A DNA stretch of 64,000 bases from a virus: IMG/VR virus record IMGVR_UViG_3300033145_000767, positions 1-64,000 of that record; one strand, 5' to 3'. Positions 11,138-38,876 of the stretch are shown piece after piece (position 1 is the first letter of the stretch; the number at the start of each line of letters is the position of its first letter). Below the pieces are notes generated by a model. It saw only the letters and a list, made by a program, of their open reading frames with translations. It ran no database searches and was not told the origin of the DNA. The translations under genes were made by a program, and so were the position numbers.

Positions 11138-11547
11138 GAACTATGCCACAATGTAAGCACAGAATTTTTGAGGATAGGTGTATTTATTGCACAGGGGCAT
11201 GGCGGGAAATATTTACTCATGCATTACATCATATGTGTACTGAATCTATGGATTATAATTTAAGTGATAGTCTGGAAGCCCTTATTCAAAGGACTGAGGT
11301 ATTAGCAACAAGGGATGAAGATGTCTATGTAGATTCGGAGTTACAGTACATACTTAGGTGTTTCAGAGGAGTTAATTTATATGATTTTGAAAGCCTAGCA
11401 ATAATTGCAGAAAGGTGTGGAAGGTCTATTTTGGATATAATATATATTCAATCAAATTATTATGGTAAAGAGGAAGTTAAACATTTTAATTTAAGGCTAA
11501 GGTTTTTGGAGAAAAAATACAAAAAAAAGGAGGTAATAAGTGCTTAA
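11116..11547 (+). CDS. Hypothetical protein, paralogue of 5251-5670
   Basis: CKH...CIYCTG; YVDSELQYIL. Confidence 0.6.
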   Translation: MGCSHILGTMPQCKHRIFEDRCIYCTGAWREIFTHALHHMCTESMDYNLSDSLEALIQRTEVLATRDEDVYVDSELQYILRCFRGVNLYDFESLAIIAERCGRSILDIIYIQSNYYGKEEVKHFNLRLRFLEKKYKKKEVISA

Positions 11548-13483
11548 AATAGGCAGTAGAGTTATTAATAAATCAGGTAATTGCTCCTCGTGGGAAAGCC
11601 CTGTATGGGGAGAAAGAAGGCAGGGTAAAGTAATTGGAACAGTAGTCCAGATAAATAAGAATGGCACACTAAGAGTATTTTGGGATAATCATATAGGTGG
11701 ATTAAGTAGCCGTTCTTACTGTATTTCCAATCAACATATAGTTGAAGTAAAACCCCTAATGATTCCTTTAGGTATTGAAATTTATCTTAAAGATTATGTA
11801 GACTTTCCTGAACATGAAGGTATATATGGTACAGTAGTTCTAAGGAGTGCAAGACTTGGGGTTAAAGTAAAATTTGGAAGAATATCTAAATATGTTAATA
11901 TAAATAATATAGTCCCAAAATCTAATGATATACATAGTAGTTGTATCTATTGTGGGGAGAAGTTAGTAAAGGGAAAAGATAACATTGTATTTTTGAATGG
12001 ATTCTTTGCACATAAATACTGTTCCACTAAATGTATTCATTGTGGGTTAAAAAAAGATATAGTAGTTAGTAAGGATGAGATACATCCTATGAGAAATTTT
12101 TGTGATAGATGTGCTAAAAAACATTATTACTTTAAGTGTGCTATCTGTAAGGAAGTGCAGTATAAGGATGGAATGTTAAAGATACACACAGGGGAGTATT
12201 TTTGTTCTACTTGCATGGAAGAACATATAAGTAATTGTCAGCATTGTGGAGAAGCTGAGTTAAAGGATTCATTAATTTTGATAGGGGGTAGAAAAATATG
12301 TAGGGGTTGTCAAAGGTACATCCAATCATGCAGTATATGTGATGATAAAACAGTACAAGGATCTGAGTTTGATAGGGTTATATACTGCCCTAAGTGTAGG
12401 AAAAAACACTTTGGGGATTGTAGTAGATGTGGTCGTAACCTCCCTACAGGTTCTTTATCAGATTTTACTTTAAATGAGGAAGAATATAAGAAAGTATGTG
12501 CACATTGTAGGAGTAGATTAGAGGAAGACCTTTATATACATAGGTGGAATTATAAGCCTAACAGATACTATTATAGCAAAATGAAATATGATAAAAATCC
12601 CCTTTACTTAGGGTTGGAACTTGAAGTAGAATTACCTAATTGTACCGCTGGGGAAGGGGCAAAAGAAACTATAAAGGCTATTGAATCCTTTGGGGCTAGC
12701 AAATATTTTTATCTAAAACAGGACGGTTCTCTTAGTAGAGGACATAGTTTTGAACTAGTGGGGCAACCTGCAACCCTAGCATTTATAGGAAATAACTATA
12801 AGATATATAATCTATTAAACTTCTTTAAGGAAAAAGGTTATGACTGTGAAACAACTGGACAATGTGGTCTACATGTTCATGTATCTAATAAAGATTTATC
12901 TTTTAGGGATGTAGCAAAAATAAAGATGTTTATATGGAAGCATAAGAATATCCTTGATATATTTGGTAATAAAACTGCATCCTCACAGCAGAGGTATGCA
13001 AAGTATGAACCATATACAATTAAGGAATTTAAGAAAAAATATATGGTAAATTATATTCATACAAAATATATGGCGTGTAACCTAACAAATAATACTTTGG
13101 AATTTAGATTTTGGAAGGCTACATTTGACCACCTAAGATTCCTTGCAACACTATCCTTTAGTGAGGCTATAACCTACTATGTTAAAGATACATCCTTAGC
13201 AAAGATACATTATGGGAAGTTTGGTGATTTTGTTCAGTGGCTGTACAAATCGGAGTATTATCACTTAGTTAAATACTTTAACCTATTAAAACTTTCAGAA
13301 AAAGAGGAAGAGTATATAAAAAATCCGCCTAAAGAAAAAAAGGAAACAAAGAAACAAGAGGCCGTTTGGGACGGGTTTGTTACTAGGAGAGATATTCGTG
13401 TGGAAGTTGAGAGAGTAGAGGAAGTAGGCTATGCAAACCCTATATTTGTACATGAAGAAGAACCTTGTGAGGATGAAGGTTAA
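11540..13483 (+). CDS. Putative amidoligase, third paralogue, with long CxxC array
   Basis: GLELEVE, QDGSL, FELVGQP, CGLHVH, TLEFRFW; more than 10 CxxC motifs. Confidence 0.85.
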   Translation: MLKIGSRVINKSGNCSSWESPVWGERRQGKVIGTVVQINKNGTLRVFWDNHIGGLSSRSYCISNQHIVEVKPLMIPLGIEIYLKDYVDFPEHEGIYGTVVLRSARLGVKVKFGRISKYVNINNIVPKSNDIHSSCIYCGEKLVKGKDNIVFLNGFFAHKYCSTKCIHCGLKKDIVVSKDEIHPMRNFCDRCAKKHYYFKCAICKEVQYKDGMLKIHTGEYFCSTCMEEHISNCQHCGEAELKDSLILIGGRKICRGCQRYIQSCSICDDKTVQGSEFDRVIYCPKCRKKHFGDCSRCGRNLPTGSLSDFTLNEEEYKKVCAHCRSRLEEDLYIHRWNYKPNRYYYSKMKYDKNPLYLGLELEVELPNCTAGEGAKETIKAIESFGASKYFYLKQDGSLSRGHSFELVGQPATLAFIGNNYKIYNLLNFFKEKGYDCETTGQCGLHVHVSNKDLSFRDVAKIKMFIWKHKNILDIFGNKTASSQQRYAKYEPYTIKEFKKKYMVNYIHTKYMACNLTNNTLEFRFWKATFDHLRFLATLSFSEAITYYVKDTSLAKIHYGKFGDFVQWLYKSEYYHLVKYFNLLKLSEKEEEYIKNPPKEKKETKKQEAVWDGFVTRRDIRVEVERVEEVGYANPIFVHEEEPCEDEG

Positions 13484-13511
13484 ACAGGCGATATAACTAG
13501 GAGGATAAAAT

Positions 13512-14540
13512 ATGTGTATGATTTGCGTTAAACCCAAAGGGATAGAGTTTCCCCCAGAAGAACACCTATTAAATTCAGAGAATAGAAATAAGGATGGTAT
13601 AGGTATAGCCTATACAAAGTACATTAAAAATAAAAAAGGAACTACAGTAGTAATTAAAAAGGATTTTAAAGATGCTAAGGATTGTTATGCATGGATGAAG
13701 AAAAATCTTAAAGTAGAGCAGTCTATTATTATCCACCAAAGGTTAGGTACATCAGGCTTATCAGATGAAGGAACAAGACACCCCTTCCCTGTAACAACTG
13801 AATGTGAAATAATGAGGGAAGCAAATCAAAAATGCCCTATAGCCTTTGCTCATAATGGGATATTCTCTGGGCATGGTTCGGATAAAAAGTATAGTGATAG
13901 TATGTTAGTGCTATCAAAGTTCTTTGGAACATTAGGTAATTTAATATTCAACAATGAAAGTGTAAGGGAATTAGTACTAGAATTTGTTGGAAACTTTAAT
14001 AAAATTGTTTTTCTAAAGGCATCTGGAAAAGTTGCAATATTTGGTAGTGGCTGGATAGAACATCCTAATGGTTGTTTATATTCTAATGAAAACTATAGCT
14101 ACACAGTTGTAAAGAAAAAAGCTTATACCCCAACAAATACTTGGGATTCAAGGTCAACATCTAAACCACAATATAATAACCAACAGGGTTGTCTTCCTTA
14201 CTATGGTAAACCTCCTTCAGGACAGCCTAAGAAAAAATATCATTGTGATATGTGTCAACAAGGGAAAAAATCTAAATGGCGTGGAGATTTAGAAATGTAT
14301 GTGTGTTCCAAATGCTACAAATCTATTCACAATGAGGCTACAAAGGATGTACCTATGCTTTCAAGTAGTACCTTGATGTGTCATTACTGTGGAAGTAATC
14401 ATGGTGTGTGGAGATTTGAAATAAAAGAAAATTCATGTAGTAAATGCTTCAGGAATCAACTATGGTTTAAAAATAAGTTAAATGAATTAGAAGCAGGAAT
14501 AATTGACACTACAGGTAAAGTAATAAATGGGAGGAAATGA
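13512..14540 (+). CDS. Class II (Ntn) glutamine amidotransferase with C-terminal Zn ribbons
   Basis: N-terminal MC, NKDGIG, HQRLGTSG, HPF, HNG, SDS. Confidence 0.9.
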   Translation: MCMICVKPKGIEFPPEEHLLNSENRNKDGIGIAYTKYIKNKKGTTVVIKKDFKDAKDCYAWMKKNLKVEQSIIIHQRLGTSGLSDEGTRHPFPVTTECEIMREANQKCPIAFAHNGIFSGHGSDKKYSDSMLVLSKFFGTLGNLIFNNESVRELVLEFVGNFNKIVFLKASGKVAIFGSGWIEHPNGCLYSNENYSYTVVKKKAYTPTNTWDSRSTSKPQYNNQQGCLPYYGKPPSGQPKKKYHCDMCQQGKKSKWRGDLEMYVCSKCYKSIHNEATKDVPMLSSSTLMCHYCGSNHGVWRFEIKENSCSKCFRNQLWFKNKLNELEAGIIDTTGKVINGRK

Positions 14541-14965
14541 TGATACAAATAAGTAATAGAGATGTATTACAAAGGAGAGTGTTAGAATTAATGCTCTCGG
14601 AGGGCATTAAAGATTTAAAAACAGTTATGGATATTGTATATGCAGAATACGCATATACTAAGGATGCCCTAGTAAATGCCATTTATGATTTATCCACCAA
14701 ATGGTTTATAGAAACAGGTCGGGGAGGTTATAGTGAACCTGATGGAATCTATACTAGGTATCAAGTTATTATGTTTGATAAAAAAGGTAATGTGGAGTCT
14801 ACCCCTATATTTAAAGATGCGGATGATGCCTTAGATATGTATTCAATATGGAGAGATAAGCATATTTTTAATAGATGTAGGGTTGCAAAAATTGACACTC
14901 TCCATAGTAAAATACTAGATGTGTTATTAGATGATTTTGAAGTAGAGGAAGGGGATGATAAATAA
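14537..14965 (+). CDS. Hypothetical protein
   Basis: Coupled ORF within the ligase cluster. Confidence 0.65.
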   Translation: MMIQISNRDVLQRRVLELMLSEGIKDLKTVMDIVYAEYAYTKDALVNAIYDLSTKWFIETGRGGYSEPDGIYTRYQVIMFDKKGNVESTPIFKDADDALDMYSIWRDKHIFNRCRVAKIDTLHSKILDVLLDDFEVEEGDDK

Positions 14966-15696
14966 TGAGGATAGTGATGGCACAAGGCGGATGCAAGACA
15001 GCAAAACGATTATCAAAGGTTATAGGATGTCCTGCTAGGTATGGTCTTCCAAAAAAGAAAAAAGTATTTGTTGTTTCCTATGGAAGGGTACTACCTCAAG
15101 CAAATCTTAATAAAAGCATTATACCAAATAAAAGAAAAGCCTTAGAAATCCTTGAGAATAACGGGATAGGTGTGCCTAAAGTTATTGGTAAGCATGAAAT
15201 AAATAATTACCCTGAAGGAGAATTCCCTGTATTAGGTAGAAAAAATCATCATGCTAAAGGTCGGGATATTGTGTTTATAAAAACAAAAGCAGGCCTTGCG
15301 GAAGTTGATAAATCTAACATAGATTATTATGTAAAGTATATTCCTAAATGGGCAGAGTACAGGGTTCATGTCTTAGGTGGAGTAGCAAAGGTAGTTGCTG
15401 TTAAGATACATGATAATAAAGAGGAAGTAAAAAAGCAACCTGTATGGAACTATGATAGTGGCTGGAAACAATTCACTTACAATGGGGGGCATGAACAAAC
15501 CCTTAAAGAATTAGGAGAAAAAGTTATAGAAATTTTAGGTTATGACTTTGGGGCTATAGATATAATAAGAAAAGGTAGGGATTATTATGTGCTTGAAGTT
15601 AATTCAGCTCCAGCTTTAATACCAGAAAGACAAGAAGTGTATGCTAATTATTTTAAAGAAACAGAAAGAGTATGGAAATTAAACGGTAGGAGATAA
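14965..15696 (+). CDS. ATP-grasp ligase (RimK/YheC-D-like)
   Basis: EYRVHV, DFGAIDI, VLEVNSAP. Confidence 0.9.
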   Translation: MRIVMAQGGCKTAKRLSKVIGCPARYGLPKKKKVFVVSYGRVLPQANLNKSIIPNKRKALEILENNGIGVPKVIGKHEINNYPEGEFPVLGRKNHHAKGRDIVFIKTKAGLAEVDKSNIDYYVKYIPKWAEYRVHVLGGVAKVVAVKIHDNKEEVKKQPVWNYDSGWKQFTYNGGHEQTLKELGEKVIEILGYDFGAIDIIRKGRDYYVLEVNSAPALIPERQEVYANYFKETERVWKLNGRR

Positions 15697-15697
15697 G

Positions 15698-15934
15698 ATG
15701 ATACAAGCCCCAAAAGAACTTAAAGAAATACACACAAGGAAAAGTTTAAATAGAGGTTGGAAAGTATACTCTTTTAAAGGCAGGGAAGCTGCAGTAAGAG
15801 AACTTAGGAGTACTGATAGGGTACAATTTAATTTTTGTAATCATTGTAATAATAAAGGGGTGTATTTAATCATAGAACTATGGGATATTAAAAGCCACGT
15901 GCAGGAAGTGTGGGCTTGGTGCGGTAAGTGCTAA
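15698..15934 (+). CDS. Zn-ribbon protein
   Basis: CNHC...WCGKC. Confidence 0.65.
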   Translation: MIQAPKELKEIHTRKSLNRGWKVYSFKGREAAVRELRSTDRVQFNFCNHCNNKGVYLIIELWDIKSHVQEVWAWCGKC

Positions 15935-15939
15935 ATGGG

Positions 15940-16085
15940 GTATATTTTAACCTATAGTATAGGCTTATAACAGGCTATCTTAGAGGGGGTCTTATTAAGG
16001 TATAGACAAGCATATACCCTCTATAAAAGGGCCTTAAAACAGGCCCTAAGGGGCTTATTTAAGGCTATTATATAAGCCTATAACA
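15940..16085. repeat. ~11-bp periodic intergenic element
   Basis: Phased AGGC/AAAA units around AGGTATA-N8-TATACCC. Confidence 0.65.
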
Positions 16086-16113
16086 TACAATAACATATAA
16101 TACAAGGAATATT

Positions 16114-16386
16114 ATGAAAAAAGCTAAAGGATTCTTATATAGGGTTAGTAAAATAGTTCCTATATGGCTATGGTGTGCATATCTGGGGGGAAAGGACTTT
16201 AGTAAATACCTCCTAATACATCTAGGTAAATTACTTTTTGAAATACTTAAAAGAATTATCCTAGCAATACTAATAATTTTAGGTGGGGATACTTTCTTGT
16301 TTACCATATATGAACCAGAGGAATATTATAAACCTATTAAAAAGGGTAAAGTAAAATATGTCAAAGGCAGCATGAAAATAATCTAA
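16114..16386 (+). CDS. Hypothetical protein
   Basis: ORF with AAGGA RBS. Confidence 0.5.
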   Translation: MKKAKGFLYRVSKIVPIWLWCAYLGGKDFSKYLLIHLGKLLFEILKRIILAILIILGGDTFLFTIYEPEEYYKPIKKGKVKYVKGSMKII

Positions 16387-16395
16387 GGAGGAATA

Positions 16396-16563
16396 ATGAA
16401 AGCTACTAGAGAACCTGGCGAATGTAAAGTAATGTTTTGTGGATGTACTCATAAGTATCAGGATGAAAAGTATGGGCATCAAATGAGGATGCACAATGCT
16501 GGAAAAGGTATGGGTAATAGTTATACTTATAAATGTACTGTTTGTGGAACTAAGAAAATATAA
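16396..16563 (+). CDS. Small Zn-binding protein
   Basis: AAGGAGG RBS; CGCTH.YQD..YG...RMHN...CTVCG. Confidence 0.7.
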   Translation: MKATREPGECKVMFCGCTHKYQDEKYGHQMRMHNAGKGMGNSYTYKCTVCGTKKI

Positions 16564-16952
16564 AGGGGGGACAATATGGAAGACAAAATTAAAAACAGGA
16601 TAATGGTAGAAGGTCTAAGTAAGATTGTAAAATTGGAATTAAATGATACTTCATCTATAGAAAATTTAGCAAGTATGGTAGAACATTTACAGTCCATAGC
16701 TAAAGGCATATTAAAAAAGGTAGGTGTATAAAATGGAACTGCACAAAAATAATATATTTGCATTAGCTGAAAGACAGTTAATAAAAGAGTATGGGGAGAA
16801 GTTTCCTCCAGCAATGATTATAGATTATGCTGTTAAGATAAGATACTTCATGGATAGAAATGCTAAGTTTGCAAAGTATACCTTAGAAGGTGGAGAGATA
16901 TCCATACAAGGTTTAAGATACCATAATATATTGATAAGATGAGGGAGGATAT

Positions 16953-17138
16953 ATGTTAAAGGAACAAGTTACAAATATGGTTGATAGATTATTTGAGAGT
17001 GAATTTGGAAGTAATAACTTAATAATACATTGTTATCTTAACTTCCTAGAAAGTTCCTTATTAGCAGGAAACATATTTATATGTAGATATAGAGTAAAGT
17101 TTCTAGGGAAAGCAGATAAGGCTGTAACAATGCACTAA
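16953..17138 (+). CDS. Hypothetical protein
   Basis: GGGAGG RBS. Confidence 0.6.
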   Translation: MLKEQVTNMVDRLFESEFGSNNLIIHCYLNFLESSLLAGNIFICRYRVKFLGKADKAVTMH

Positions 17139-17150
17139 AAGGAGTATAGG

Positions 17151-17453
17151 ATGAATAAAAAATGTAGTGATTGTCCGTTTATGATTAACATTAAGGAGGA
17201 AGCTTATGCGTTATTTAGCAATAGGTGTCCTAAATGTGGAGCAGATTTAGTGCCTAGTAAGCTATCTACAATGAATGATTTGGGTTTAGTAGATAGGGTA
17301 AAACATTCAATCAACAAATGGTTTGGGGAACTAGGTATAGAAGGTACATTAGAAATGCTGGAGACAGGGGATAATTTCCCTCATTCAGAATTATTCTATG
17401 CAGAGTTATTTAGTAGAGGACTTAAAATAAGGGTAAAGAAAGCAGGGGGATAA
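17151..17453 (+). CDS. Zn-ribbon protein
   Basis: CSDC...CPKCG. Confidence 0.65.
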   Translation: MNKKCSDCPFMINIKEEAYALFSNRCPKCGADLVPSKLSTMNDLGLVDRVKHSINKWFGELGIEGTLEMLETGDNFPHSELFYAELFSRGLKIRVKKAGG

Positions 17454-17808
17454 GATGATACTGTGTATGGAATGTAAACAACCTGTTACTGAATGTAAAG
17501 GCGGATATTTTTGTGTAAACCCTGAATGTCCCTGCTATGTTGTAGCAATATTAAAGGGGGAACAAGTGTATAGGGAAGATAACCCTGTGGAATTTTTACT
17601 AGAAAGCTAAAAGAATGAGGAGGATATTATGGTTTGGTTAGGAATATATATACTAGGGGCAATTATAAGTGCAGGGGGGGTATTAGGTTATGAATATTAT
17701 AAGAATAATAGTACACTTGGGGAATCATTAGTTATGTCTATAACATTTGGTTTAATATCTTGGGTTGGAGTTATAGCCTTAATAGTGAAAGAATCCAGTT
17801 AGTTGAAA

Positions 17809-17829
17809 TTTCATACCTTATGGTATAAT
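17809..17829 (+). promoter_or_regulatory. Phage promoter class TTTCAT-N6-TGnTATA(A/C)T
   Basis: Same motif and spacing at 22583, 36671 and 48549. Confidence 0.65.
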
Positions 17830-17848
17830 TGTATTAGAGGGGGATATT

Positions 17849-18046
17849 ATGAGTAAGAGGAATGTTAAACATTTAATTGCAATCTTAGAAAATAATGGGT
17901 ACCAGTATTATATTGCTGGTATGGTTATACATTATGGCAAAGAAAAATATGATAAGAGAATGGGATGTGATTATATCCATATAGTAGGCGGAGAAATAGA
18001 TTATGCAAAAGGATTTTTAAAAATAGTTAATAAGATAACTAATTAA
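17849..18046 (+). CDS. Hypothetical protein
   Basis: First ORF after the promoter. Confidence 0.6.
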   Translation: MSKRNVKHLIAILENNGYQYYIAGMVIHYGKEKYDKRMGCDYIHIVGGEIDYAKGFLKIVNKITN

Positions 18047-23882: not shown

Positions 23883-24578
23883 ATGTTAAGTCAACTATTT
23901 AATTTAGCAAAGCTAAGCGGTAAAAGAGAAATAAAAGAGGTAGTAGTTAAACCTACTAAGGATAGTTTAAGTGTTTTAGCTACATCCCCAGATGAAAGCA
24001 TAGCAGTAAACTTACTTATTAAAAGTAATGATTTAGGGATTACAGCTCAGATAGGGCTTACAAACATAGTTAGTATACAAAAATATATAGCCCTGTTTGG
24101 GGAAGAGCCTAAGATTGTTGTAAAAGATAATAGGCTAATTTTAAGTAAAGGTAGAAAAAGAATTTCTTCCTTACTTAAAGAGGCAGAATATGTAACATCT
24201 AAGATAGGGAAGGACAAGTATGACACTATAAGAAAACTTGTTGAAGACGGGGAAGAAGTACAGATTTCATCCGATGATGTAAAGAAAATAAAAGATTATC
24301 TTAATGCAACAGGTGTGGAAGCCTTTAAACTAACAGTAGAGGGTAAAGAAATCTTAGTTGAAGTAGGGGGTGCAAATACAGATACTATAACTGATGTTAT
24401 AGATATCCCAAATAAGGTTGCAAATAAGGTATCAGTTGTTTTAGGGCAGGCTTTTATTGATGCCACTACAAATCTAAGTGGTACTATAACCTTAGTATTA
24501 AAAAATGATTCGCCTGTGTTAGTTAAAGCTGAGGCAACTACATATAAATATGAGGCTCTAGTAGCTTTATTCGGTTAA
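23883..24578 (+). CDS. DNA sliding clamp (PCNA/T4 gp45-like)
   Basis: 231 aa, two beta-alpha repeats, C-terminal DSPVLV...Y.ALVA pattern; directly upstream of the clamp loader. Confidence 0.7.
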   Translation: MLSQLFNLAKLSGKREIKEVVVKPTKDSLSVLATSPDESIAVNLLIKSNDLGITAQIGLTNIVSIQKYIALFGEEPKIVVKDNRLILSKGRKRISSLLKEAEYVTSKIGKDKYDTIRKLVEDGEEVQISSDDVKKIKDYLNATGVEAFKLTVEGKEILVEVGGANTDTITDVIDIPNKVANKVSVVLGQAFIDATTNLSGTITLVLKNDSPVLVKAEATTYKYEALVALFG

Positions 24579-24720: not shown

Positions 24721-25632
24721 ATGATTAAGTTACCATTTGTAGAAAAATATAGAGCAAAAAACCTAGATGAAATAGTACTGGATGAAAATAGCAAGGAGTT
24801 AATATTTAATGCTATTTCAGAGGGTAATATGCCTAATCTATTCTTTCATAGCTATTCAGCAGGTACAGGTAAGACCTCTATGGCTAAGATAATAATAGCT
24901 ACAATAGGCTGTGATAAGCTTACACTTAACGCCTCAGATGAAAGGGGTATAGACACTATAAGAGAAAAAGTAAGTGGGTTTTGTAAAACAATGTCAATGA
25001 TAAAGGACATAAAGAAGTGTGTGTTCCTTGATGAAGCAGATTACTTAACATCACAGGCACAAGCTAGTTTAAGAAACCTGATGGAAGAAGTTAGCAGTAA
25101 TGCTTTCTTTATTCTTACAGCTAATTATGAAGAAAAAATTATAGCGCCTTTAAGGAGTAGGTGTATATCAATAAACTTTAATACCCCTCCAAGGCATGCA
25201 ATAGGGCAAAGGCTTATAGAAATTGTTAATAAAGAAAAGTTAGATGTGGAAGTTGAAGTTTTAGACGATATGATAGATTATTTCTACCCAGATATTAGAA
25301 GTATGGTATCTTCTCTACAAGCAATAAAGCTAGGGGCGAACTATGAAGATATGTTTAAGCAATATAAGGTCTTTAAAGAGGTACTAACAGAGATTTCACG
25401 GGGTAAATATGATAGGGTAAGGCAAAGAATTATAAATGAACAGATAGATGTTAAGCGTTTTATAAAATGGTTGTTTGAAAAAACTGTTGATTTGAATTTG
25501 CCTTTTAATAAGGTTGGAGAATTATGTTTAATTCTATCAGACATAGAGAAATATATTTCTAATGGAGTAACACCAAAGATTATATTCCTAGCTAATATAG
25601 TGAGGTTAAATAAATGTTTGACTATCAATTAG
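24721..25632 (+). CDS. Clamp loader ATPase subunit (RFC-small/T4 gp44-like)
   Basis: FVEKYR, AGTGKTS, LNASDERGID, FLDEAD, LRSRC. Confidence 0.92.
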   Translation: MIKLPFVEKYRAKNLDEIVLDENSKELIFNAISEGNMPNLFFHSYSAGTGKTSMAKIIIATIGCDKLTLNASDERGIDTIREKVSGFCKTMSMIKDIKKCVFLDEADYLTSQAQASLRNLMEEVSSNAFFILTANYEEKIIAPLRSRCISINFNTPPRHAIGQRLIEIVNKEKLDVEVEVLDDMIDYFYPDIRSMVSSLQAIKLGANYEDMFKQYKVFKEVLTEISRGKYDRVRQRIINEQIDVKRFIKWLFEKTVDLNLPFNKVGELCLILSDIEKYISNGVTPKIIFLANIVRLNKCLTIN

Positions 25633-26366: not shown

Positions 26367-26714
26367 ATGAAACTAGGTAAATTTCTTCCAGAAGAAGATA
26401 GATTAGGTAGCCAATATGAAACTTTCTTAAAACTTAAAAAGAAGTTTGAAAAGGAAGGTATCCCAGAGAATATAGCAACATACAAAGCAAGTTATGTGCT
26501 AGAGCCTAAGAAGTTAAAGAAGATTAAAATGCTTGCTAGTAAGAAGGGCGAGAGCAAGTCAAGGGTTATATCTTTCTTCTTTGATAGTGATGAAGATATA
26601 GCTTTAGTAAGTAAATACTTTAATGTATCAGTACTAAACAATAGAGAGCCACAAGTAGGGCACTCAGACCTATTAATAGCTATATTAAAGGAATTAGATA
26701 AGTATGGTAAATAA
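26367..26714 (+). CDS. Hypothetical protein
   Basis: GAGG RBS, 115 aa. Confidence 0.65.
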   Translation: MKLGKFLPEEDRLGSQYETFLKLKKKFEKEGIPENIATYKASYVLEPKKLKKIKMLASKKGESKSRVISFFFDSDEDIALVSKYFNVSVLNNREPQVGHSDLLIAILKELDKYGK

Positions 26715-27282
26715 ACTTTGCACTAAATGTAAATTAACAAAAAAGTTAAATGAATTTCCACCGCATAGAAAATATAAAAGTGGAAGAAATTCTTGGTGTA
26801 GAAAATGTAAAAATCAATATATGAGGGCATTTAGAAAAAATTATCCTTGGCTTTGTTCTTATAAATCTGCAAAGAATAGGTGCAATAACAAAAATTGTAA
26901 TGATTATAAAGATTACGGTGGTAGAGGTATTAGATTTTTATTGACCAAGGAACAGATAAAGAAACTTTGGTATAGAGATAAGGGTTATAAACTAACACAG
27001 CATAGTATAGACCGTATAGATAATGATGGAGACTATACATTTAATAATTGTAGGTTTATAGAATTAAGTGAAAATTCAATAAAACAAGAACATAATAAAA
27101 AAGAAAAAGAGGTATATCAATACAGTTTGCAAGGAAAATCCCTTAACAAATGGAAGAGTATGTCAGAAATCTCTAATAAATTAAATTACGATATTAGTGG
27201 TATATCTAAGGCTTGTTCAGGAAAACAAAAAACATCTTATGGGTTTATATGGAAACTTAAAGAAATGGAGAAATTAAAATGA
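26704..27282 (+). CDS. HNH-type homing endonuclease with NUMOD1 HTH
   Basis: YGGRGI, SIDRIDNDGDY..NCRF, C-terminal KTSYGFIWK. Confidence 0.85.
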   Translation: MVNKLCTKCKLTKKLNEFPPHRKYKSGRNSWCRKCKNQYMRAFRKNYPWLCSYKSAKNRCNNKNCNDYKDYGGRGIRFLLTKEQIKKLWYRDKGYKLTQHSIDRIDNDGDYTFNNCRFIELSENSIKQEHNKKEKEVYQYSLQGKSLNKWKSMSEISNKLNYDISGISKACSGKQKTSYGFIWKLKEMEKLK

Positions 27283-27576: not shown

Positions 27577-28149
27577 ATGATAACTAAAGAATTTTTAGTA
27601 GAACAATATATAAATCAAAAGAAGTCCACCAATTTAATAGGTAAAGAGATTGGTTCTTCTAGTGGGGATGTATATTATTATCTAAAGAAATATGGTATAA
27701 AACTTAGGGATAAAAGCACATTAATGATGGGGAATACCAATTCAAAAGATAGGGTAGTTACAGAAAAGACTAGAAAATTATTAAGCAAAATACATAAAGG
27801 AAAATCGAAATCAGAAGAGCATAAGAAAAAATGTAGCTTAGCACAGATAAAAAGATTTAAGGATAACCCTGAACATGGGGAACACCTAAGAAAAATTAGA
27901 TTAGGTATTAAAATGTCTACAGAACAAAAAGAAAAAATTTCTAAAAGTGTACTTAAAAATAATAAAGTAAAACATCATATATTTGGAAAAGAATATAATG
28001 ACCTAATAGATTTAACTAGAAGTAAACACATGAGTTTACACCATAGTGCTTACTTTTACATACTAGACAAACATGGCAAAGAAGGTATATTAGATTACCT
28101 TAATTGGTTTGATACAAAACATGGGCTAGGAGAAAATTATGGCGTGTAG
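27577..28149 (+). CDS. NUMOD3/HNH homing endonuclease
   Basis: N-terminal HTH, SEEHKKK repeats, KHH...L.RSKH..LH. Confidence 0.75.
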   Translation: MITKEFLVEQYINQKKSTNLIGKEIGSSSGDVYYYLKKYGIKLRDKSTLMMGNTNSKDRVVTEKTRKLLSKIHKGKSKSEEHKKKCSLAQIKRFKDNPEHGEHLRKIRLGIKMSTEQKEKISKSVLKNNKVKHHIFGKEYNDLIDLTRSKHMSLHHSAYFYILDKHGKEGILDYLNWFDTKHGLGENYGV

Positions 28150-29491
28150 TAAAGGATATACTTCCCCAAGAATTTCATCGGAGTATAAGGATTGCGGACT
28201 TATTTTGACTTTTGACCAATACAATATATGTGGTTTTGGTTTTGGGAAACAATGTGCAGGATGTTTGTATTGTTTTAGTAATTCCCAGAAAATAAACCAC
28301 CCAATGTACCAAGAAAAAGCATTTCAAGTAAGGTCAGTAAACCCTGATAAAGTAGTTGACATGCTTACAGGAAAAAGTAAGTCTAAATATTATGATAATT
28401 TCTTTAAATATAGATTCCCCTTTCATTGGGGGGGTTTAGCAGACCCATTCTGTTACATGGAGGAGAAAGAAAGAGTTGGTTTAAAAATATTACAAGGTGC
28501 AAGTAAAGTACAGTATCCTATAATATTCTCTACAAAAGGCACTTTTATGTGCTATGATAAAGAGTATCTTAAAGTATTTGAAAGTTATAAGAAAAGTAAA
28601 AACTTAGGGTTTAGCTTTAGTATAATTACTAATGAAGAAAGTCTTGCAAGTAAAATAGAAAAAGAAGTGCCAACTGTAGAAGAAAGACTTAAAGCAATGA
28701 AAATTCTTTCTGACATGGGCTTTTGGACAGTTCTTAGGCTAAGACCCTTTATGATTGGTATAACAGATATTAACTTAGAAACCCTCTTAGAAAGGGCTAA
28801 AAAGGCCGGTGCAAGGGCAGTATCAACAGAGTTTTATTGCCTAGACCTTAGAAGTTTAAGCACCTTAAATGAAAGACTTAAAGAAATGAATAAAATAACA
28901 GGTCTTGACTATAGAAAATATTATAAAGCTTTATCCCCAAGTAGCAGAGGAACTTACTTGAGATTGAATAGGCTGGCAAAAGAGCCCTATATGAAAAGGT
29001 TACTAAAGAAATGTAAGGAACTAGATTTAAAGGTTTCTATATCAGACCCAGACTTTAAAGAGTTTAATTTTTCTGGGTGTTGCTGTGGCTACCCTGAAAC
29101 TAAAGAAGAATATAATAGTGAAATTTGTAATTGGTCTAAAGGTCAATTAACATATCATTTAACAGAATTAAGAAAAAAGTATTGGTCTGGTTATAGACCT
29201 GCATTATTAACTTGGGACGAGGTTAAAGATACTATAGCTAATGATTGGGCAAGTGATGGGAGATACTTTAAAGATAGTATAAAATATTGGTCAACAGATT
29301 TTAGAAAGAAACAGCAATCACACATAGATGAATTTCTACAGTCATGGAATAGTACTAAGTCAAGTGATAGCCCATACAGTTATTTTGATGGGTTATTAGT
29401 CCCATATAAATTAGACGACAATGGTAATATAGTTTATAAATATGAACCTTCTGATTCTGAGCTTAGATTGCGTAAGGACGGAATTGTATGA
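28139..29491 (+). CDS. Radical SAM enzyme, spore-photoproduct-lyase-like phage family
   Basis: FDQYNICGF...CAGCLYCF, WGGLADPF, FSTKG, LRLRPF, C-terminal CCCG. Confidence 0.85.
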   Translation: MACSKGYTSPRISSEYKDCGLILTFDQYNICGFGFGKQCAGCLYCFSNSQKINHPMYQEKAFQVRSVNPDKVVDMLTGKSKSKYYDNFFKYRFPFHWGGLADPFCYMEEKERVGLKILQGASKVQYPIIFSTKGTFMCYDKEYLKVFESYKKSKNLGFSFSIITNEESLASKIEKEVPTVEERLKAMKILSDMGFWTVLRLRPFMIGITDINLETLLERAKKAGARAVSTEFYCLDLRSLSTLNERLKEMNKITGLDYRKYYKALSPSSRGTYLRLNRLAKEPYMKRLLKKCKELDLKVSISDPDFKEFNFSGCCCGYPETKEEYNSEICNWSKGQLTYHLTELRKKYWSGYRPALLTWDEVKDTIANDWASDGRYFKDSIKYWSTDFRKKQQSHIDEFLQSWNSTKSSDSPYSYFDGLLVPYKLDDNGNIVYKYEPSDSELRLRKDGIV

Positions 29492-29574
29492 ATAAAAAAG
29501 AATATATGAAAGAATATAGATTAAATAACATTTATATGTTATACTTGTTTGCATAGGAGGAAAGAGGAGATAAT

Positions 29575-29817
29575 ATGAAAAAGTTTATTACCATGTTACT
29601 AATGATACTAATGGTTTGGGTAGTTGTTGATAAACAATGCACACATAGCAGAAATTATTTTGTGTTAGAAAATAAAATAGGGGTTAGAAAAGTTTTCCAT
29701 AGCCATGCCTCTAAGGATAATGAGGTTATTATTGGGGATAGAGTAAAAATTAAAATACCCACAAAAAGATTAAAATGGTATGAAGATTCATATAAGTACT
29801 TAGAGGGGGTAATATGA
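29575..29817 (+). CDS. Hypothetical protein with N-terminal TM
   Basis: GAGGAG RBS. Confidence 0.55.
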   Translation: MKKFITMLLMILMVWVVVDKQCTHSRNYFVLENKIGVRKVFHSHASKDNEVIIGDRVKIKIPTKRLKWYEDSYKYLEGVI

Positions 29818-30368
29818 TAAACGAAAAAGAAGTTAGTAACTTATTACTAGAAAAAGTTGGTACTCATAGTAGTATCTTTATGTTCAAAGCAAAAGTTATA
29901 TTCGATAAGAAAATAAAAACTTACTGTTGCTTAGAGTATAATGGGAAAAAAGGGTGTCCTAACTATGGTAAAAAGAAAGGGTGTCCACCAAACAATAGAG
30001 ATATAGATGAAGTGCTAGATGTAACAGAAGACATTTATGTATTTGGTATGTCTTTTAACTTAAAGATACACGCAGATGAAATGAAAAAGAAACACCCTAA
30101 GTGGACACAAAGGCAATGCTATAATGTAATATATTGGCAACCAAAGCAGAGAAAGAAATTTAAGATGTTTATAGATAACTTTAAAAAGAAGTACCCTGAA
30201 TTAAGGGTAGACACCTTGCCAGAGGGGCATGGGGTTGATGTAACTAAAATGTTAAAAGATGCAGGTGTAGGTATATCCTGGGACTACCCTTTGGACACAG
30301 TTTGGACAGTTGCAATAGCAGGTAAGAAGGCTAAATATAAAAGAAAAAAGAGGGTTAAAAATGTATAA
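29814..30368 (+). CDS. DUF2284-like metal-binding protein
   Basis: CC...GCPNYG...GCPP; PEGHGVDV. Confidence 0.75.
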   Translation: MINEKEVSNLLLEKVGTHSSIFMFKAKVIFDKKIKTYCCLEYNGKKGCPNYGKKKGCPPNNRDIDEVLDVTEDIYVFGMSFNLKIHADEMKKKHPKWTQRQCYNVIYWQPKQRKKFKMFIDNFKKKYPELRVDTLPEGHGVDVTKMLKDAGVGISWDYPLDTVWTVAIAGKKAKYKRKKRVKNV

Positions 30369-31155
30369 GGTATACATTCCTACAAAAGGCAGAGCAAATA
30401 ACTTATACCTAAATAGGTTAGTAGATGTCATTAAGGTAAAACCTATATTAGTTGTAGAACCTCAAGAGTTAGAGGAGTATAATAAAGCATACAAGAATAA
30501 GGTATACTATGAGGTATTAGCTAAAGATAATATGGGGTATAATTACCTTATAAAAAAATTATATAAAACTATAAAGCTATTTAACTTTAATGCTTTTATC
30601 ATTGATGATGATATATGTAATATATACTTAAAAGAAGTGGGGAAGAAAAGGTTAAATCTAGGTATAGAAAACATAAATTTTGCACTAAACTATATATCCT
30701 GTTATACCCCATATGCCCTAACAGGTAGCGTATTTAAACAACACCAATGGGTGTGTGAAACAGATTTTCAAGACTTTGGCAGACCTTCAGCTTTTGTATA
30801 TATAAAAGGCAATGAGATAACGGATGAAGTTTTGTCATATTTCAATAGATATGATATACTTAGTTATAGGCTTAAAGCAGACATTATGTTTGCCACAGCC
30901 TGCTTATATAACGGTTTAAAGATAGGTATGTGTGGTAGATATGGGTTTACTACACCCGATATGGCTAAAAGTAAAGGGGGTTGTTATGATGATTACCAAA
31001 CAGACCAGCAATCTTTATGTAGTAAAGAAATACACAATATAGTAGGTAGTAATTTTTCATCAGTAATACATAGAAGGGGTAGAACAGAAGTAAAGATAGC
31101 ATGGAAAAAGCTATATGATGCAAAAGTAAAAACTAAACAGAACAAACTATTTTAG
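30361..31155 (+). CDS. GT-A glycosyltransferase (TET/GREB1-associated phage DNA GT-like)
   Basis: VYIPTKGRA, VVEPQE..Y, IIDDDI, KADI, SKGGC, I.WKK. Confidence 0.8.
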   Translation: MYKVYIPTKGRANNLYLNRLVDVIKVKPILVVEPQELEEYNKAYKNKVYYEVLAKDNMGYNYLIKKLYKTIKLFNFNAFIIDDDICNIYLKEVGKKRLNLGIENINFALNYISCYTPYALTGSVFKQHQWVCETDFQDFGRPSAFVYIKGNEITDEVLSYFNRYDILSYRLKADIMFATACLYNGLKIGMCGRYGFTTPDMAKSKGGCYDDYQTDQQSLCSKEIHNIVGSNFSSVIHRRGRTEVKIAWKKLYDAKVKTKQNKLF

Positions 31156-33259: not shown

Positions 33260-33616
33260 ATGAAAAGATTAATGGCGTGTGTGGTTTTGGTTATGGCAGT
33301 TATGGTAATATCACTTGGCAGATTAGGAAATAATAGAGAAAGTAATTTTGGGTCGGCAACTGTTGTGCATTCTCCTGTAAATCAGGTTAAACCGCTTGAT
33401 GTTCAAATAATAGAAATACAAGAAGCTATTGATGCTCAAAGTAAAGAATTAAGAGAATTAAAAATTAGAGTACAAGCTGATTTTATTCGTCAAGGTTATG
33501 GCAACAGGACTCTTTATGCGTATATTAAACAGCTAAAACAAGAAAATAGGAATATAAAACAATATTTAGAGTTAAAAGGTAAAGATGAGTGTAAAGGTGA
33601 TGGTGATTGCAAATGA
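33260..33616 (+). CDS. Secreted/membrane-anchored coiled-coil protein
   Basis: Signal-like MKRLMACVVLVMAVMV; GGAGG RBS. Confidence 0.6.
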   Translation: MKRLMACVVLVMAVMVISLGRLGNNRESNFGSATVVHSPVNQVKPLDVQIIEIQEAIDAQSKELRELKIRVQADFIRQGYGNRTLYAYIKQLKQENRNIKQYLELKGKDECKGDGDCK

Positions 33617-34092
33617 GTAAAGAACTAATAGTAATGGCTGGGAACATAGGTACAGGTAAGACCACTTATGTTAAGAATTATCAGAAGGAAGGCTATATAG
33701 TTATAGCAAGAGATACCTTAAGATATGCAATAGGTGGGGGAACTTATGTATTTAACCTAGACTATGAACCTATTGTACATGCAACAGAAAAATATTTACT
33801 TAGAAAATTTCTTGATTTAGGTGTAAACATAGTTATAGATGAAACAAATGTTACAGCAAGAAGTAGGAGAGTTTTGGATGTAGAGGCAAAACAGGGGGGT
33901 TACAAAGTAATATGCATAGTAATGCCTAGGCTATCTAAAAAGGATAGTGTTGATAGGCGTATGCAAAACCCCCATGATTGCCCAGATAGAACAGTATGGG
34001 AAGGTGTATGGGGAAGATTTAATGACAAGTATGAAGAACCTAAGTACTCAGAAGGCTTTGATGAGATTAATTTTATAACTGATTGGGCTTAA
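33613..34092 (+). CDS. P-loop kinase (AAA_33/polynucleotide-kinase-like)
   Basis: GNIGTGKTT, RDTLR, VIDETN. Confidence 0.85.
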   Translation: MSKELIVMAGNIGTGKTTYVKNYQKEGYIVIARDTLRYAIGGGTYVFNLDYEPIVHATEKYLLRKFLDLGVNIVIDETNVTARSRRVLDVEAKQGGYKVICIVMPRLSKKDSVDRRMQNPHDCPDRTVWEGVWGRFNDKYEEPKYSEGFDEINFITDWA

Positions 34093-34702: not shown

Positions 34703-34963
34703 ATGAAAAAAGAATTTAAAATCCCATTTTGGACATTCATGTTCTTTATTATATGCTACTCTAATCAAGGGTTAGCAGGTTTACCAGAACAATGTTTGTA
34801 TTATTTAAAGAGGGAATCTTGGGGTTTGTCAGCTACATCTATAGGCCTTATTGGTATAATAACAGGTCTAGCTTGGTATACAAAGGTCTTGTGGGGCTAT
34901 CTAAATGATTATACTCCGTTAAGAAAAATAAAAATAAGATTTAGAAAAAAAGGAAAGAAATGA
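34703..34963 (+). CDS. MFS/BT1 (folate-biopterin) transporter, N-terminal part (TM1-2)
   Basis: QGL...YYLKRE.WGLS...LAWYTKVLWGYLNDYTPL matches the BT1 N-terminus. Confidence 0.75.
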   Translation: MKKEFKIPFWTFMFFIICYSNQGLAGLPEQCLYYLKRESWGLSATSIGLIGIITGLAWYTKVLWGYLNDYTPLRKIKIRFRKKGKK

Positions 34964-35991
34964 TTATTAAACTACCTTATAAGTATGAAGTAACTATTGA
35001 AATAACAAAAGACAGGTACTTATCTAAGTACTATTTATATATAGCTTATTCATTGATTATAGCTTGTATACTATATATAGTTACATTTGGCTTAAATATT
35101 GTAAGCCTTATTGTAACAGGGTTACTAATTAATATTGGAATTGCTTTAGCAGATGTAGCAAATGATAAGCAGATGTGTTTAATAGAAAGAGAGCATAATT
35201 TAAAAGGGAAGGTTCAAGCTATTCAATGGGCATCATTAAGTGTATGTAGCTTAGTTGTATCTTTACTTGGGGCATACTTAGCTTCCACATTACCAGAACC
35301 TTTAAATTATAAACTAGCTTATGGTATTTGTATAATAATACCTATAAGTGCATTAATATATTTGAGAACAAAATATTTTGAAGAGCCTGTAAAAGAAGTT
35401 AAGAAGTTTACTTTAAGTGTATTTAGATATTTGAAAAATAAAGACTTCTTACTTGGTCTAGCCTTTATAGTTTTACTTAGGTTTAGCCCATCCTTTGGTA
35501 CAGGGCTTATGATTAAATGCAGAGAAGAATTATTTATTGGTAAGATGTTCCTAGGTTATGTTGGGGCATTGGGTACAGTAGTAGGTATGGTAGGTTATGG
35601 CTTATATTATTGGAAAGCACATAAGTTTCCTATTAAAAAAATGTTATATTTTACAATAGTATTTGGGGCTATAACAAGTCTTTTCTACCTATATCTGCCT
35701 AGTAAGTGGTTTTTAGTTGCTTACAGTCTATTATTTGGGGCATTTGAGGGTATATCTTTCTTAGCTGTTATGTCCTTCATGGTTAAGATATTACCTACTG
35801 GAAGTGAAGCTATGTTTTATGCATTAGTTACATCAGCTAATAACTTATCTAGTAGATTAGGTAGTGCATTTGGTGGTATAATATATGATAACTTTGGCTA
35901 TAATATGAATGTAGTAGTAGCAAGTTTGTGCACTTTTTTATGCATATTCATAATCCCACACTTAAAAATAGAGGAGATACCTAATGAGTAA
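34960..35991 (+). CDS. MFS/BT1 transporter, C-terminal part (TM3-12)
   Basis: ALADVAND, VQAIQW, P.GSEAMFYALVTS.NN; about 10 TM. Confidence 0.8.
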   Translation: MIIKLPYKYEVTIEITKDRYLSKYYLYIAYSLIIACILYIVTFGLNIVSLIVTGLLINIGIALADVANDKQMCLIEREHNLKGKVQAIQWASLSVCSLVVSLLGAYLASTLPEPLNYKLAYGICIIIPISALIYLRTKYFEEPVKEVKKFTLSVFRYLKNKDFLLGLAFIVLLRFSPSFGTGLMIKCREELFIGKMFLGYVGALGTVVGMVGYGLYYWKAHKFPIKKMLYFTIVFGAITSLFYLYLPSKWFLVAYSLLFGAFEGISFLAVMSFMVKILPTGSEAMFYALVTSANNLSSRLGSAFGGIIYDNFGYNMNVVVASLCTFLCIFIIPHLKIEEIPNE

Positions 35992-37825: not shown

Positions 37826-38418
37826 TGTTAATTAATAAAATAAACTCTATGAAAAATCTTGATGATTTTTTATATACTACTTACCTAATTGGTGCTATGG
37901 AAGAGAAAGCCGAAGGTGATAGTGGAGAGTCTAAAAGAGAGGTATTTTTTAATGGGTTAGTAAAAAGAAATGTATTCCCTATAGACTCAACTAGAACTGA
38001 AGTTATGAGAACAGGTTTTACTTCTAAAGAACTTAAAGAAAAAATGGCAGGTTGGACAGCTTCAGGTAATAAAGAACTAAGAAAAAAATATGCTAAATGT
38101 ATCTGGGAAGGAAGAAATATGGTTGATGAAGATTTTAACCTAATATACATTCCAGGCGATTTTCATGCAGTTAAGATTTCTAATTGGATAACAGCCGTTA
38201 TAAATGAAGGGGATAGACCTTGTGGTACATTTGGTGAAGCTGGTGTAGCTACAGATATAAAGATACCTATTTATATAATAACTGAGCTACCAAAATATAA
38301 ATTGCCAGGAAGCTTAATACAATGGATGGATATTAATGATGGGGAAGTATTTAAAACTCAAAGAGAGTATTTTAACTTTATAGATAAAAAATATGTTTTA
38401 AAGGAGAAAAAAAGATGA
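37825..38418 (+). CDS. Nucleoside 2-deoxyribosyltransferase / dNMP N-glycosidase-like protein
   Basis: TYLIGAME, D...V..S, CGTFGEAG (catalytic Glu), IPIY. Confidence 0.75.
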   Translation: MLINKINSMKNLDDFLYTTYLIGAMEEKAEGDSGESKREVFFNGLVKRNVFPIDSTRTEVMRTGFTSKELKEKMAGWTASGNKELRKKYAKCIWEGRNMVDEDFNLIYIPGDFHAVKISNWITAVINEGDRPCGTFGEAGVATDIKIPIYIITELPKYKLPGSLIQWMDINDGEVFKTQREYFNFIDKKYVLKEKKR

Positions 38419-38876
38419 GCAATGAAAAACCCACTAACCCAAAAGGTATTATTGGTAGTAGTAAACTACCTTTTCACCTTTGCCCAACAACCTTTATAGC
38501 AGGGGTATCAATGGCTTTTCTTGAAGGTTGCTTAAAGTATGGCAGAAGTAATTTTAGAGCAGCAGGGGCAAGGTCTAGTATTTATTATGATGCAACAATG
38601 AGGCATTTAATATCATGGTTTGAGGGGGAAGATATAGACCCTGATAGCGGGATACATCATTTATATAAAGCAGGGGCTTGTTTAGCAGTAATAGCTGATG
38701 CTATGGAAGCAGATAAATTAAATGATGATAGAATGATTAAGGGAGGTTATGAAGATATAATTAAAAAATTTACCCCTTTAATTAAAGAGATAAAAGAAAG
38801 GCATAAAGGTAAAAACCCTAAACATTATACTATAAAAGATAACAAAAAGGAGGAACAGGATGAAGTTAAAAGTTAA
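38415..38876 (+). CDS. dATP/dGTP diphosphohydrolase (DUF5664)
   Basis: NPK..IG..KLP..L.P, EG.LKYGR.NF, YYDA.MRH..SW.EGED.DPDSG.HHL. Confidence 0.9.
   Translation: MSNEKPTNPKGIIGSSKLPFHLCPTTFIAGVSMAFLEGCLKYGRSNFRAAGARSSIYYDATMRHLISWFEGEDIDPDSGIHHLYKAGACLAVIADAMEADKLNDDRMIKGGYEDIIKKFTPLIKEIKERHKGKNPKHYTIKDNKKEEQDEVKS

Follow-up and report, generated by a model that had tools for sequence, protein, structure and literature searches.

A radical SAM protein beside a TAGT-family glycosyltransferase: a candidate oxygen-independent entry enzyme for phage DNA hypermodification

Two sources of the hydroxyl handle of phage pyrimidine hypermodifications have been named: ThyA homologues, at work before replication, and the O2-requiring TET/JBP dioxygenases, at work after it. 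The genome of the virus IMGVR_UViG_3300033145_000767 (IMG/VR) raises the question of how such a handle could be made where neither is recognised. Its first 64,000 bases, the stretch analysed here and called the window, encode a radical SAM protein resembling spore photoproduct lyase (SPL), hereafter rSAM, a DUF2284-like protein and a GT-A glycosyltransferase (GT) of the TET-associated type (TAGT); the complete genome comprises 90,469 bp, bears direct terminal repeats and is rated 100% complete by CheckV. An initial annotation of the window had proposed that the three proteins form one anaerobic pathway of DNA hypermodification, an interpretation that is partly supported as a whole. On balance, the locus is probably a post-replicative, O2-independent hypermodification cassette, in which rSAM would make the glycosyl acceptor, probably 5-hydroxymethyluracil (5hmU) from thymine, and TAGT would add the sugar.

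Entry enzymes around one glycosyltransferase family

The known sources of an acceptor are missing from this genome. A six-frame search of all 90,469 bp for TET/JBP (PF12851) gives no match at E ≤ 1, with gp26 of Nonlabens phage P12024L recovered at 2.8e-29 as a positive control, so that the absence of TET/JBP first noted for the window extends to the genome. The ThyA family has no match in the whole genome at E ≤ 10, and six-frame searches for ThyX, the peptidase U32-type hydroxylase and 2OG-FeII_Oxy_3 return zero matches each; the whole-genome count for C5-cytosine methyltransferases is likewise zero. The position of rSAM beside TAGT, in a genome with no known acceptor-making enzyme, suggests that rSAM probably prepares the base.

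Related phages distribute these enzymes in a complementary manner. TAGT loci were taken as the best 80 of 151 IMG/VR matches to a sub-alignment (A6), and 49 TAGT records without a nearby rSAM were searched in full (one, L150, was left out). The rSAM profile finds nothing in these 49 records and is positive in 5 of 5 controls. A ThyA homologue is present in 39 of them, within 3 kb of TAGT in 35 of the 39, and TET is present in seven; no record has both. Completeness of the three records that lack both is 11%, 30% and 42%. Conversely, TET is found in 0 of 50 rSAM-bearing records and ThyA in 4 of 50, and for the 25 records with both rSAM and TAGT the figures are 0/25 and 2/25. One of these two ThyA-like genes, which encodes 257 aa, has a deaminase-like gene as its neighbour and lies about 8 kb away; it may be part of an ordinary dTMP-supply pair. 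TAGT-bearing records use the entry enzymes ThyA and TET and the candidate entry enzyme rSAM almost exclusively of one another.

Gene order points to the same coupling. The neighbours of rSAM were clustered in 74 IMG/VR loci, named by Pfam and PHROGs, and counted with cluster hidden Markov models (HMMs) within ±10 kb; the counts refer to the 55 loci with a full-length rSAM, or to 43 lineages after dereplication at 90% identity. The usual order runs from a DnaB-like helicase through the clamp, the clamp loader, the small clamp-loader subunit and a 130-aa protein to rSAM, followed by TAGT, DNA polymerase, gp32-like and RecA-like genes. The clamp loader (family c2) occurs in 42/55 loci, and the cassette comes directly after the clamp module in related phages. 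TAGT lies near rSAM in 27/55 loci (19/43 lineages) with a median gap of 245 bp, and is recognised by Pfam in 25 of the 50 rSAM-bearing records. Both co-occurrence with the glycosyltransferase and exclusivity with TET/JBP, which the initial annotation had named as a check, are thus observed.

The strongest single argument for coupling is the existence of fused forms. Among 24 representatives of the rSAM family of at least 560 aa, eight carry a TAGT fusion: three are TAGT-rSAM (P0177, P0178, P0217), four are rSAM-TAGT (P0188, P0190, P0201, and P0197 with an intein), and one joins a Walker-A (P-loop) protein, rSAM and TAGT (P0194). The remaining long representatives mostly contain inteins or are fused to unknown families. 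Conserved adjacency, fusions in both orders and a near-exclusive distribution relative to ThyA homologues and TET support the functional link between rSAM and the glycosyltransferase that had been supposed from the window.

Other partners recur at lower frequency: a second radical SAM protein with a SPASM domain (17/55 loci, 10/43 lineages), a Walker-A protein of family c15 (13/55, 11/43), a nameless 366-aa family (9/55, 8/43), the DUF2284-like protein (9/55, 8/43), and the amino acid:DNA transferase ADDT, always with c15 (7/55, 6/43). The ADDT beside rSAM relatives matches PF18724 at 1.7e-15; its enzyme set is, besides TAGT, the other one with a known action on 5hmU in DNA. Six of the 43 lineages have none of TAGT, ADDT, the Walker-A protein and the 366-aa family. 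Neighbour families c16, c20 and c23 match neither Pfam nor PHROGs and show no likeness to TAGT by hhalign. Just before rSAM in loci L053 and L054, and in loci with a short rSAM, lies a ParB-like gene of the same family as the one beside TET in TAGT loci (E 1.7e-24 to 6.7e-45). For phage thymine dioxygenases, ParB homologues of this type serve as activators on double-stranded DNA (PMC13229309).

These short rSAMs (IMG/VR loci L064-L080) are a variant of about 340 aa, related over residues 1-231 only. They always follow the ParB-like gene, adjoin the small and large terminase genes and lack TAGT, a context identical to that of ParB-dependent T-dioxygenases. At another rSAM locus (L012, positions 12964-17955), a second radical SAM protein with SPASM is accompanied by an APS kinase (1.6e-57) and by a fusion of Pol III alpha polymerase with uracil-DNA glycosylase. 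A kinase in the window at 33607-34092 was considered as an analogue of 5-HMUDK and placed outside the cassette, since it resembles polynucleotide kinases and shares only the P-loop with c15.

The phylogeny of TAGT is consistent with exchange of the first enzyme. In a quick maximum-likelihood analysis of 58 TAGTs, the three partner labels require 8 changes on the tree (minimum 2; shuffled mean 22.7), and six rSAM-linked TAGTs form a clade nested, with support 97, in one of 28 rows whose other members are linked to ThyA or TET. This interleaving indicates that the entry enzyme has been swapped repeatedly around one glycosyltransferase family. The sole GenBank phage match of the window TAGT, at 24% identity over 95%, is gp27 of Nonlabens phage P12024L, which sits in a TET-TAGT-methyltransferase trio (gp26-gp27-gp28).

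Protein families, fold and a possible reaction

The TAGT family was reportedly defined by Iyer et al. in 2013, in NAR. The window protein passes the cut-off of PF20691 (28.1 bits against 27.5) over its N-terminal 90 residues only, and matches phrog_842 over its full length (1e-15) and the family HMM c6 (2.1e-22). Residues R11, DDD 82-84 and GG 206-207 are conserved, with D82, D83 and D84 present in 20 of 20 sequences (alignment A4); they supply the DxD metal/nucleotide-sugar motif, which is the catalytic motif of GT-A enzymes.

The assignment of rSAM by sequence is more distant. It scores 26.3 bits against Radical_SAM (PF04055; cut-off 29.5), an annotation that many of its homologues carry, and matches phrog_13321 at 2.4e-15. 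The NCBIfam models for the PA0069 family (4.1e-16, 58.9 bits) and the Rv2578c family (6.3e-11, 41.9 bits), both radical SAM families of the COG1533 type, are matched far below their curated cut-offs of 360 and 430. A word-indexed search yields 340 homologues, mostly of 440-480 aa and 40-80% identical over their full length, with P0002 (81%) among the closest; an exhaustive profile search, with sequences clustered at 50% identity, yields 294 clusters at E ≤ 1e-30, a number that rises to 1,072 at E ≤ 1e-10. A scan of IMG/VR with the single protein gave no matches, and the profile of alignment A3 was used instead, which places the family on 252 contigs. Cellular genomes, sampled at one per species for 185,579 species, yield only four loci, and three of the four are on 3-4 kb contigs of metagenome-assembled genomes. 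This is a large, almost virus-only family.

Cysteines are its most constant feature. The cluster cysteines C31, C42 and C45 are kept in 30 of 30 sequences of A3, in most members as CX3CX2C; a 7-residue insertion gives CX10CX2C in the window protein, in three relatives in A3 and also in two intein-bearing relatives. Invariance also holds for C315 and C316, and almost for C19 and C292. The third cluster cysteine is followed by an invariant Phe, F46; in SPL, whose catalysis uses a Cys hydrogen-atom donor and a Tyr relay, this position is a Tyr. The inteins of relatives P0003 and P0006 sit exactly before the third cluster cysteine, Cys45; the window has a pair of free-standing homing-endonuclease-like genes immediately preceding rSAM.

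The predicted fold is clearly that of a radical SAM enzyme. The AlphaFold2 model has a mean pLDDT of 90.6, and Foldseek returns SPL as its top match (E 1.2e-5). VIA-align, run against 48,161 chains, also places SPL (4fhc_A) first, with Z 18.1-18.4, a root-mean-square deviation of 3.3-3.4 and 264-266 aligned residues at about 12% identity, pairing residues 1-303 of the model with 10-341 of SPL; the next-best fold is SuiB (Z 15.6-15.7). Residues 304-450 lie outside this alignment and form an added C-terminal domain of about 150 residues (450 aa in total, against about 340 aa for single-domain SPL), for which VIA-align gives no recognised fold relative and an Atlas search an uninformative score of 0.78. 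No SPL model appears among the NCBIfam matches of rSAM at E ≤ 0.1, nor does the A3 profile match SPL among all PDB sequences at E ≤ 1. The term SPL-like, used in the initial annotation, therefore holds for the fold and not for sequence-family membership.

The likeness to SPL (PDB 4FHC), also a radical SAM enzyme and the best structural match, invites a comparison of substrates. SPL acts on thymine in DNA; thymine as the substrate of rSAM is a proposal only. Unlike SPL, rSAM carries an invariant Cys-Cys pair in its extra domain, belongs to a phage replication module and is fused to a glycosyltransferase in relatives. The starting annotation had left the substrate as a T or 5-methylcytosine (5mC) methyl group. 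A C5-methyltransferase above cut-off occurs in 0 of 44 full-length-type and 1 of 6 short-type rSAM records, and its absence from both this genome and the 44 makes 5mC unlikely and keeps thymine as the candidate. The link to ADDT, a thymidine hypermodification enzyme (PMC8989533), also points to thymine.

A reaction can be sketched on this basis. It is proposed that rSAM acts on phage DNA, where the 5'-deoxyadenosyl radical would take a hydrogen atom from the C5-methyl group of thymine. SPL catalysis runs via a thymine methyl (allylic) radical, and abstraction of a methyl hydrogen from a flipped-out thymine by rSAM would reach that same radical directly. If that radical then gave up an electron, either back to the cluster or to an auxiliary site (with C19, C292, C315 and C316 as candidate ligands), and captured water, the product would be 5hmU, made without O2. 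TAGT, judging by its family, would then transfer a sugar from a nucleotide sugar onto the 5hmU hydroxyl. On comparative evidence the proposed rSAM-TAGT pathway is well supported. The broader proposal, that the rSAM family is a third, O2-independent route to 5hmU in DNA, a thymine C5-methyl hydroxylase with water as its oxygen source in hundreds of uncultured phage lineages, is more tentative and falls somewhat short of probable.

Known systems and competing explanations

By analogy, the cassette would work like a TET-TAGT or ThyA-homologue-GT pathway with a different first enzyme. Cassettes of 5mYOX (TET/JBP) and TAGT, such as gp26-gp27-gp28 of P12024L, use the same GT-A family, and their entry enzyme lies directly upstream of the glycosyltransferase, rSAM being its counterpart here. 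The ParB-like partner family is common to some members of both, and the logic is post-replicative in both. The difference lies in the first step, where a radical SAM protein replaces the O2- and 2-oxoglutarate-dependent dioxygenase, and in the lack of a methyltransferase. Such TET/GT and ParB-dependent T-dioxygenase systems of phages are described by NEB (PMC8256090, PMC13229309, bioRxiv 10.1101/2023.12.21.572611).

Pathways of a ThyA homologue and a glycosyltransferase (5-hydroxymethylcytosine in T-even phages; 5-hydroxycytosine in RB69 and DLP3, PMC13326640) have TAGT relatives that are 32-47% identical to the L012 TAGT, and the two genes form a tight pair (35/39 within 3 kb). In these pathways the handle arises on the mononucleotide, ahead of replication; the present genome has neither ThyA nor ThyX homologues. 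Thymidine hypermodification clusters (5-HMUDK and AADT, with or without the M6 gp53 radical SAM isomerase; PMC8989533, PMC5889632) are a further relative: some rSAM relatives adjoin ADDT and a Walker-A protein, and DNA is the substrate there, as proposed here. Unlike these clusters, the window has TAGT and not ADDT, and rSAM is of a different family from gp53 and is proposed to act first, not late. No account of an rSAM-TAGT or rSAM thymine-hydroxylase system was found in the literature, supplements and the TAGT-defining paper lying outside the scope of that search.

Several observations weigh against rSAM as the entry enzyme. The main counter-indication comes from the closest IMG/VR relative, L010 (51% identity), in which a 470-aa ThyA-like protein (11317-12726) directly follows rSAM and is itself followed by a Walker-A protein. 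This protein has a partial thymidylate-synthase-like domain (phrog_160 7e-8; Pfam 20.5 bits), and its place directly after rSAM, repeated by a ThyA-like protein in the likewise close relative L057, fits a later tailoring role for rSAM there. The four ThyA-bearing records among the 50 with rSAM depart from strict exclusivity, and about half of the rSAM loci lack TAGT. Since A6, adopted because A4 was too divergent, is the narrower alignment, the TAGT set is biased to relatives of the rSAM-linked TAGT of L012; the records are also kin to each other, so that their counts are not independent. The PDB search with the A3 profile lends no sequence support to a relation with SPL, and tblastn of rSAM against 50,697 GenBank phage records gives nothing at E ≤ 1e-5, leaving the family with no cultured carrier. 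Hydroxylation of a DNA base by a radical SAM enzyme is not known to have a precedent. Of the contigs that phage-specific 5mYOX profiles recover, PF12851 annotated 83-94.6% (PMC13229309); it misses about 5-17% of phage 5mYOX contigs, and a very divergent dioxygenase could therefore still be encoded in this genome.

The ThyA-like genes after rSAM in L010 and L057, and the ThyA-like genes in four of the 50 records generally, would be accommodated if rSAM were a tailoring enzyme that rearranges or further modifies a base adduct or the attached sugar, like the M6 gp53 radical SAM isomerase; the acceptor would then come from an unrecognised enzyme, or TAGT would act on a canonical base directly. A late-acting radical SAM enzyme has a precedent in thymidine hypermodification (PMC8989533), and the second radical SAM/SPASM genes counted above (17/55) indicate that radical tailoring does occur in such cassettes. 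SPL and M6 gp53 were at that time, according to Lee et al. 2021 (PMC8989533), the only radical SAM enzymes tied to DNA. A tailoring role would, however, leave 23 of the 25 rSAM+TAGT records, and this complete genome, without an acceptor source. Moreover, rSAM is constant while its partners vary (TAGT, ADDT with the P-loop protein, unknowns), a pattern typical of an entry step, and it is not similar to M6 gp53, with no phage match at 1e-5. Tailoring is thus an unlikely account of the locus as a whole. It is similarly improbable that rSAM makes some other handle, such as a 5-hydroxy-pyrimidine, a thymine-CH2-S or -N adduct or another modified base, with 5hmU not an intermediate. A covalent intermediate or an auxiliary cluster could involve the invariant C315-C316 pair and the near-invariant C19 and C292, and the C-terminal domain has no known fold match. 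5-Hydroxycytosine made by ThyA homologues has recently been shown to be a glycosyl acceptor (PMC13326640). Yet the two partner sets, TAGT and ADDT with the P-loop protein, are those known for 5-hydroxymethylpyrimidines, and the rSAM-linked TAGTs nest among ThyA- and TET-linked ones. The passage of SPL chemistry through a thymine methyl radical is a further point against a different handle.

The structural match itself raises the further idea of a genuine SPL-type repair lyase for UV damage in tightly packed phage DNA, with the proximity of TAGT incidental. SPL is the closest solved structure, homologues are labelled 'DNA repair photolyase' by JGI, and cellular SplB-like radical SAM proteins are tied to SOS and repair operons (PMC3765255). 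Against repair stand the TAGT fusions in both orders, the distribution complementary to ThyA and TET, the failure of sequence searches to find SPL in NCBIfam or PDB at the thresholds given above, the extra 150-residue domain and the near absence of rSAM from cellular genomes. A repair lyase is accordingly very improbable, and rSAM as the source of the glycosyl acceptor is the reading that is retained.

Layout of the locus, accessory genes and implications

The three-gene cluster that was first described is confirmed, with each gene an open reading frame (ORF) supported by family matches (Table 1). Two details are added: an 80-aa ORF sits between rSAM and the DUF2284-like gene, and two homing-endonuclease-like genes separate the clamp loader from rSAM, so that the cluster lies downstream of the clamp module without directly following it. 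The recurrence of TAGT and the DUF2284-like gene beside rSAM in related loci, counted above, makes the clustering more than accidental. The four ORFs are co-directional, with overlaps of 4 bp between the 80-aa ORF and the DUF2284-like gene and 8 bp between the latter and TAGT. The locus has no blastn match among GenBank phages, and a promoter and terminator scan gave results at chance level.

Table 1. Cassette genes and neighbouring genes in the 64,000-base window
Feature	Coordinates	Strand	Length	Basis
rSAM, photoproduct-lyase-like radical SAM protein	28139-29491	+	450 aa	Pfam, PHROG and NCBIfam matches; AlphaFold2 fold
80-aa ORF, N-terminus hydrophobic	29575-29817	+	80 aa	ORF listing
DUF2284-like protein, divergent	29814-30368	+	184 aa	PF10050, c17 HMM
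TAGT-family GT-A glycosyltransferase	30361-31155	+	264 aa	PF20691, phrog_842, c6 HMM
Putative sliding clamp (context)	23883-24578	+		Position and c3 family only
Clamp loader (context)	24721-25632	+		Family c2
Homing-endonuclease-like gene, HNH/NUMOD1 (context)	26704-27282	+		Pfam/PHROG
Second homing-endonuclease-like gene (context), overlaps rSAM start	27577-28149	+		

The DUF2284-like protein belongs to the cassette as a genuine though optional component and is always embedded in it. In eight of its nine loci it adjoins rSAM (4/9), the Walker-A protein (5/9) or both, and in two it abuts TAGT as well; no fused forms were found. It passes the cut-off of PF10050 (33 bits against 25, residues 45-93; 33.6 bits with the stretches summed), matching HMM positions 19-66 and, weakly, 126-150, with no full-length match, and it matches cassette family c17 at 1.6e-39. 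C38, C48 and C57 are invariant and H94 nearly so (alignment A5); the second cysteine cluster, the CxxCxC...C block of a canonical paralogue, is a gap. Its model (pLDDT 76.8) gives nothing in Foldseek at E ≤ 0.001. VIA-align relates it to nitroreductase-like, MetH-activation, QueG and MMACHC folds at Z ≤ 6.0, too weak for a fold to be named. Literature that mentions DUF2284 gives no function. The protein may be redox- or cofactor-related. Of the supply of electrons or a cofactor ascribed to it at the outset, the association with the cassette stands, and the specific role does not gain from the missing cysteine cluster, the presence in only 8 of 43 lineages or the low Z. Searches of Pfam, PHROG and NCBIfam at the thresholds applied place the 80-aa ORF in no family, and it has no phmmer match in the 74 related loci; it is a candidate cassette member only.

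The canonical DUF2284 paralogue (57914-58402, 75 bits) lies between an SDR (57225-57917) and a cytidylyltransferase (58396-58848), which is followed by a LicD+GT1 protein (58848-60767) and, further on, a GT2 (region 62062-62826). Together this set resembles a CDP-alditol or teichoic-acid-type pathway, which could serve to lengthen a DNA glycan or to change the surface of the host. An early cluster (8432-15696) contains an Amidoligase_2 protein (10109-11137), an ATP-grasp protein (14965-15696) and a GGACT-family match; amidoligase genes are placed near thymidine hypermodification genes by Lee et al. 2021 (PMC8989533). Elsewhere in the window are a small radical SAM/Fer4_12 protein of activase or QueE type in the early region (6248-6742, 164 aa), with no partner gene identified, and an MFS/BT1 gene of the folate-biopterin transporter family (34703-35991), which appears split into ORFs of 86 and 343 aa with a 4-bp overlap. 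The N-terminal domain of a dATP/dGTP diphosphohydrolase is found at 38415-38876 (2.7e-21), with no PurZ or deazaguanine pathway recognised in the phage.

If the proposal is correct, rSAM would be the first radical SAM enzyme that installs the primary handle of a DNA hypermodification, feeding glycosyl-, amino-acid- and other transferases, and would carry out a type of reaction that is new for radical SAM enzymes on DNA. It would also offer an O2-independent tool for writing 5hmU. The cassette marks its phages as probably resistant to many restriction systems. A radical SAM source of the acceptor would assign a function to a share of the roughly 65% of phage GT contigs that have no known partner (bioRxiv 10.1101/2023.12.21.572611), and would account for post-replicative DNA hypermodification by phages from anoxic habitats.

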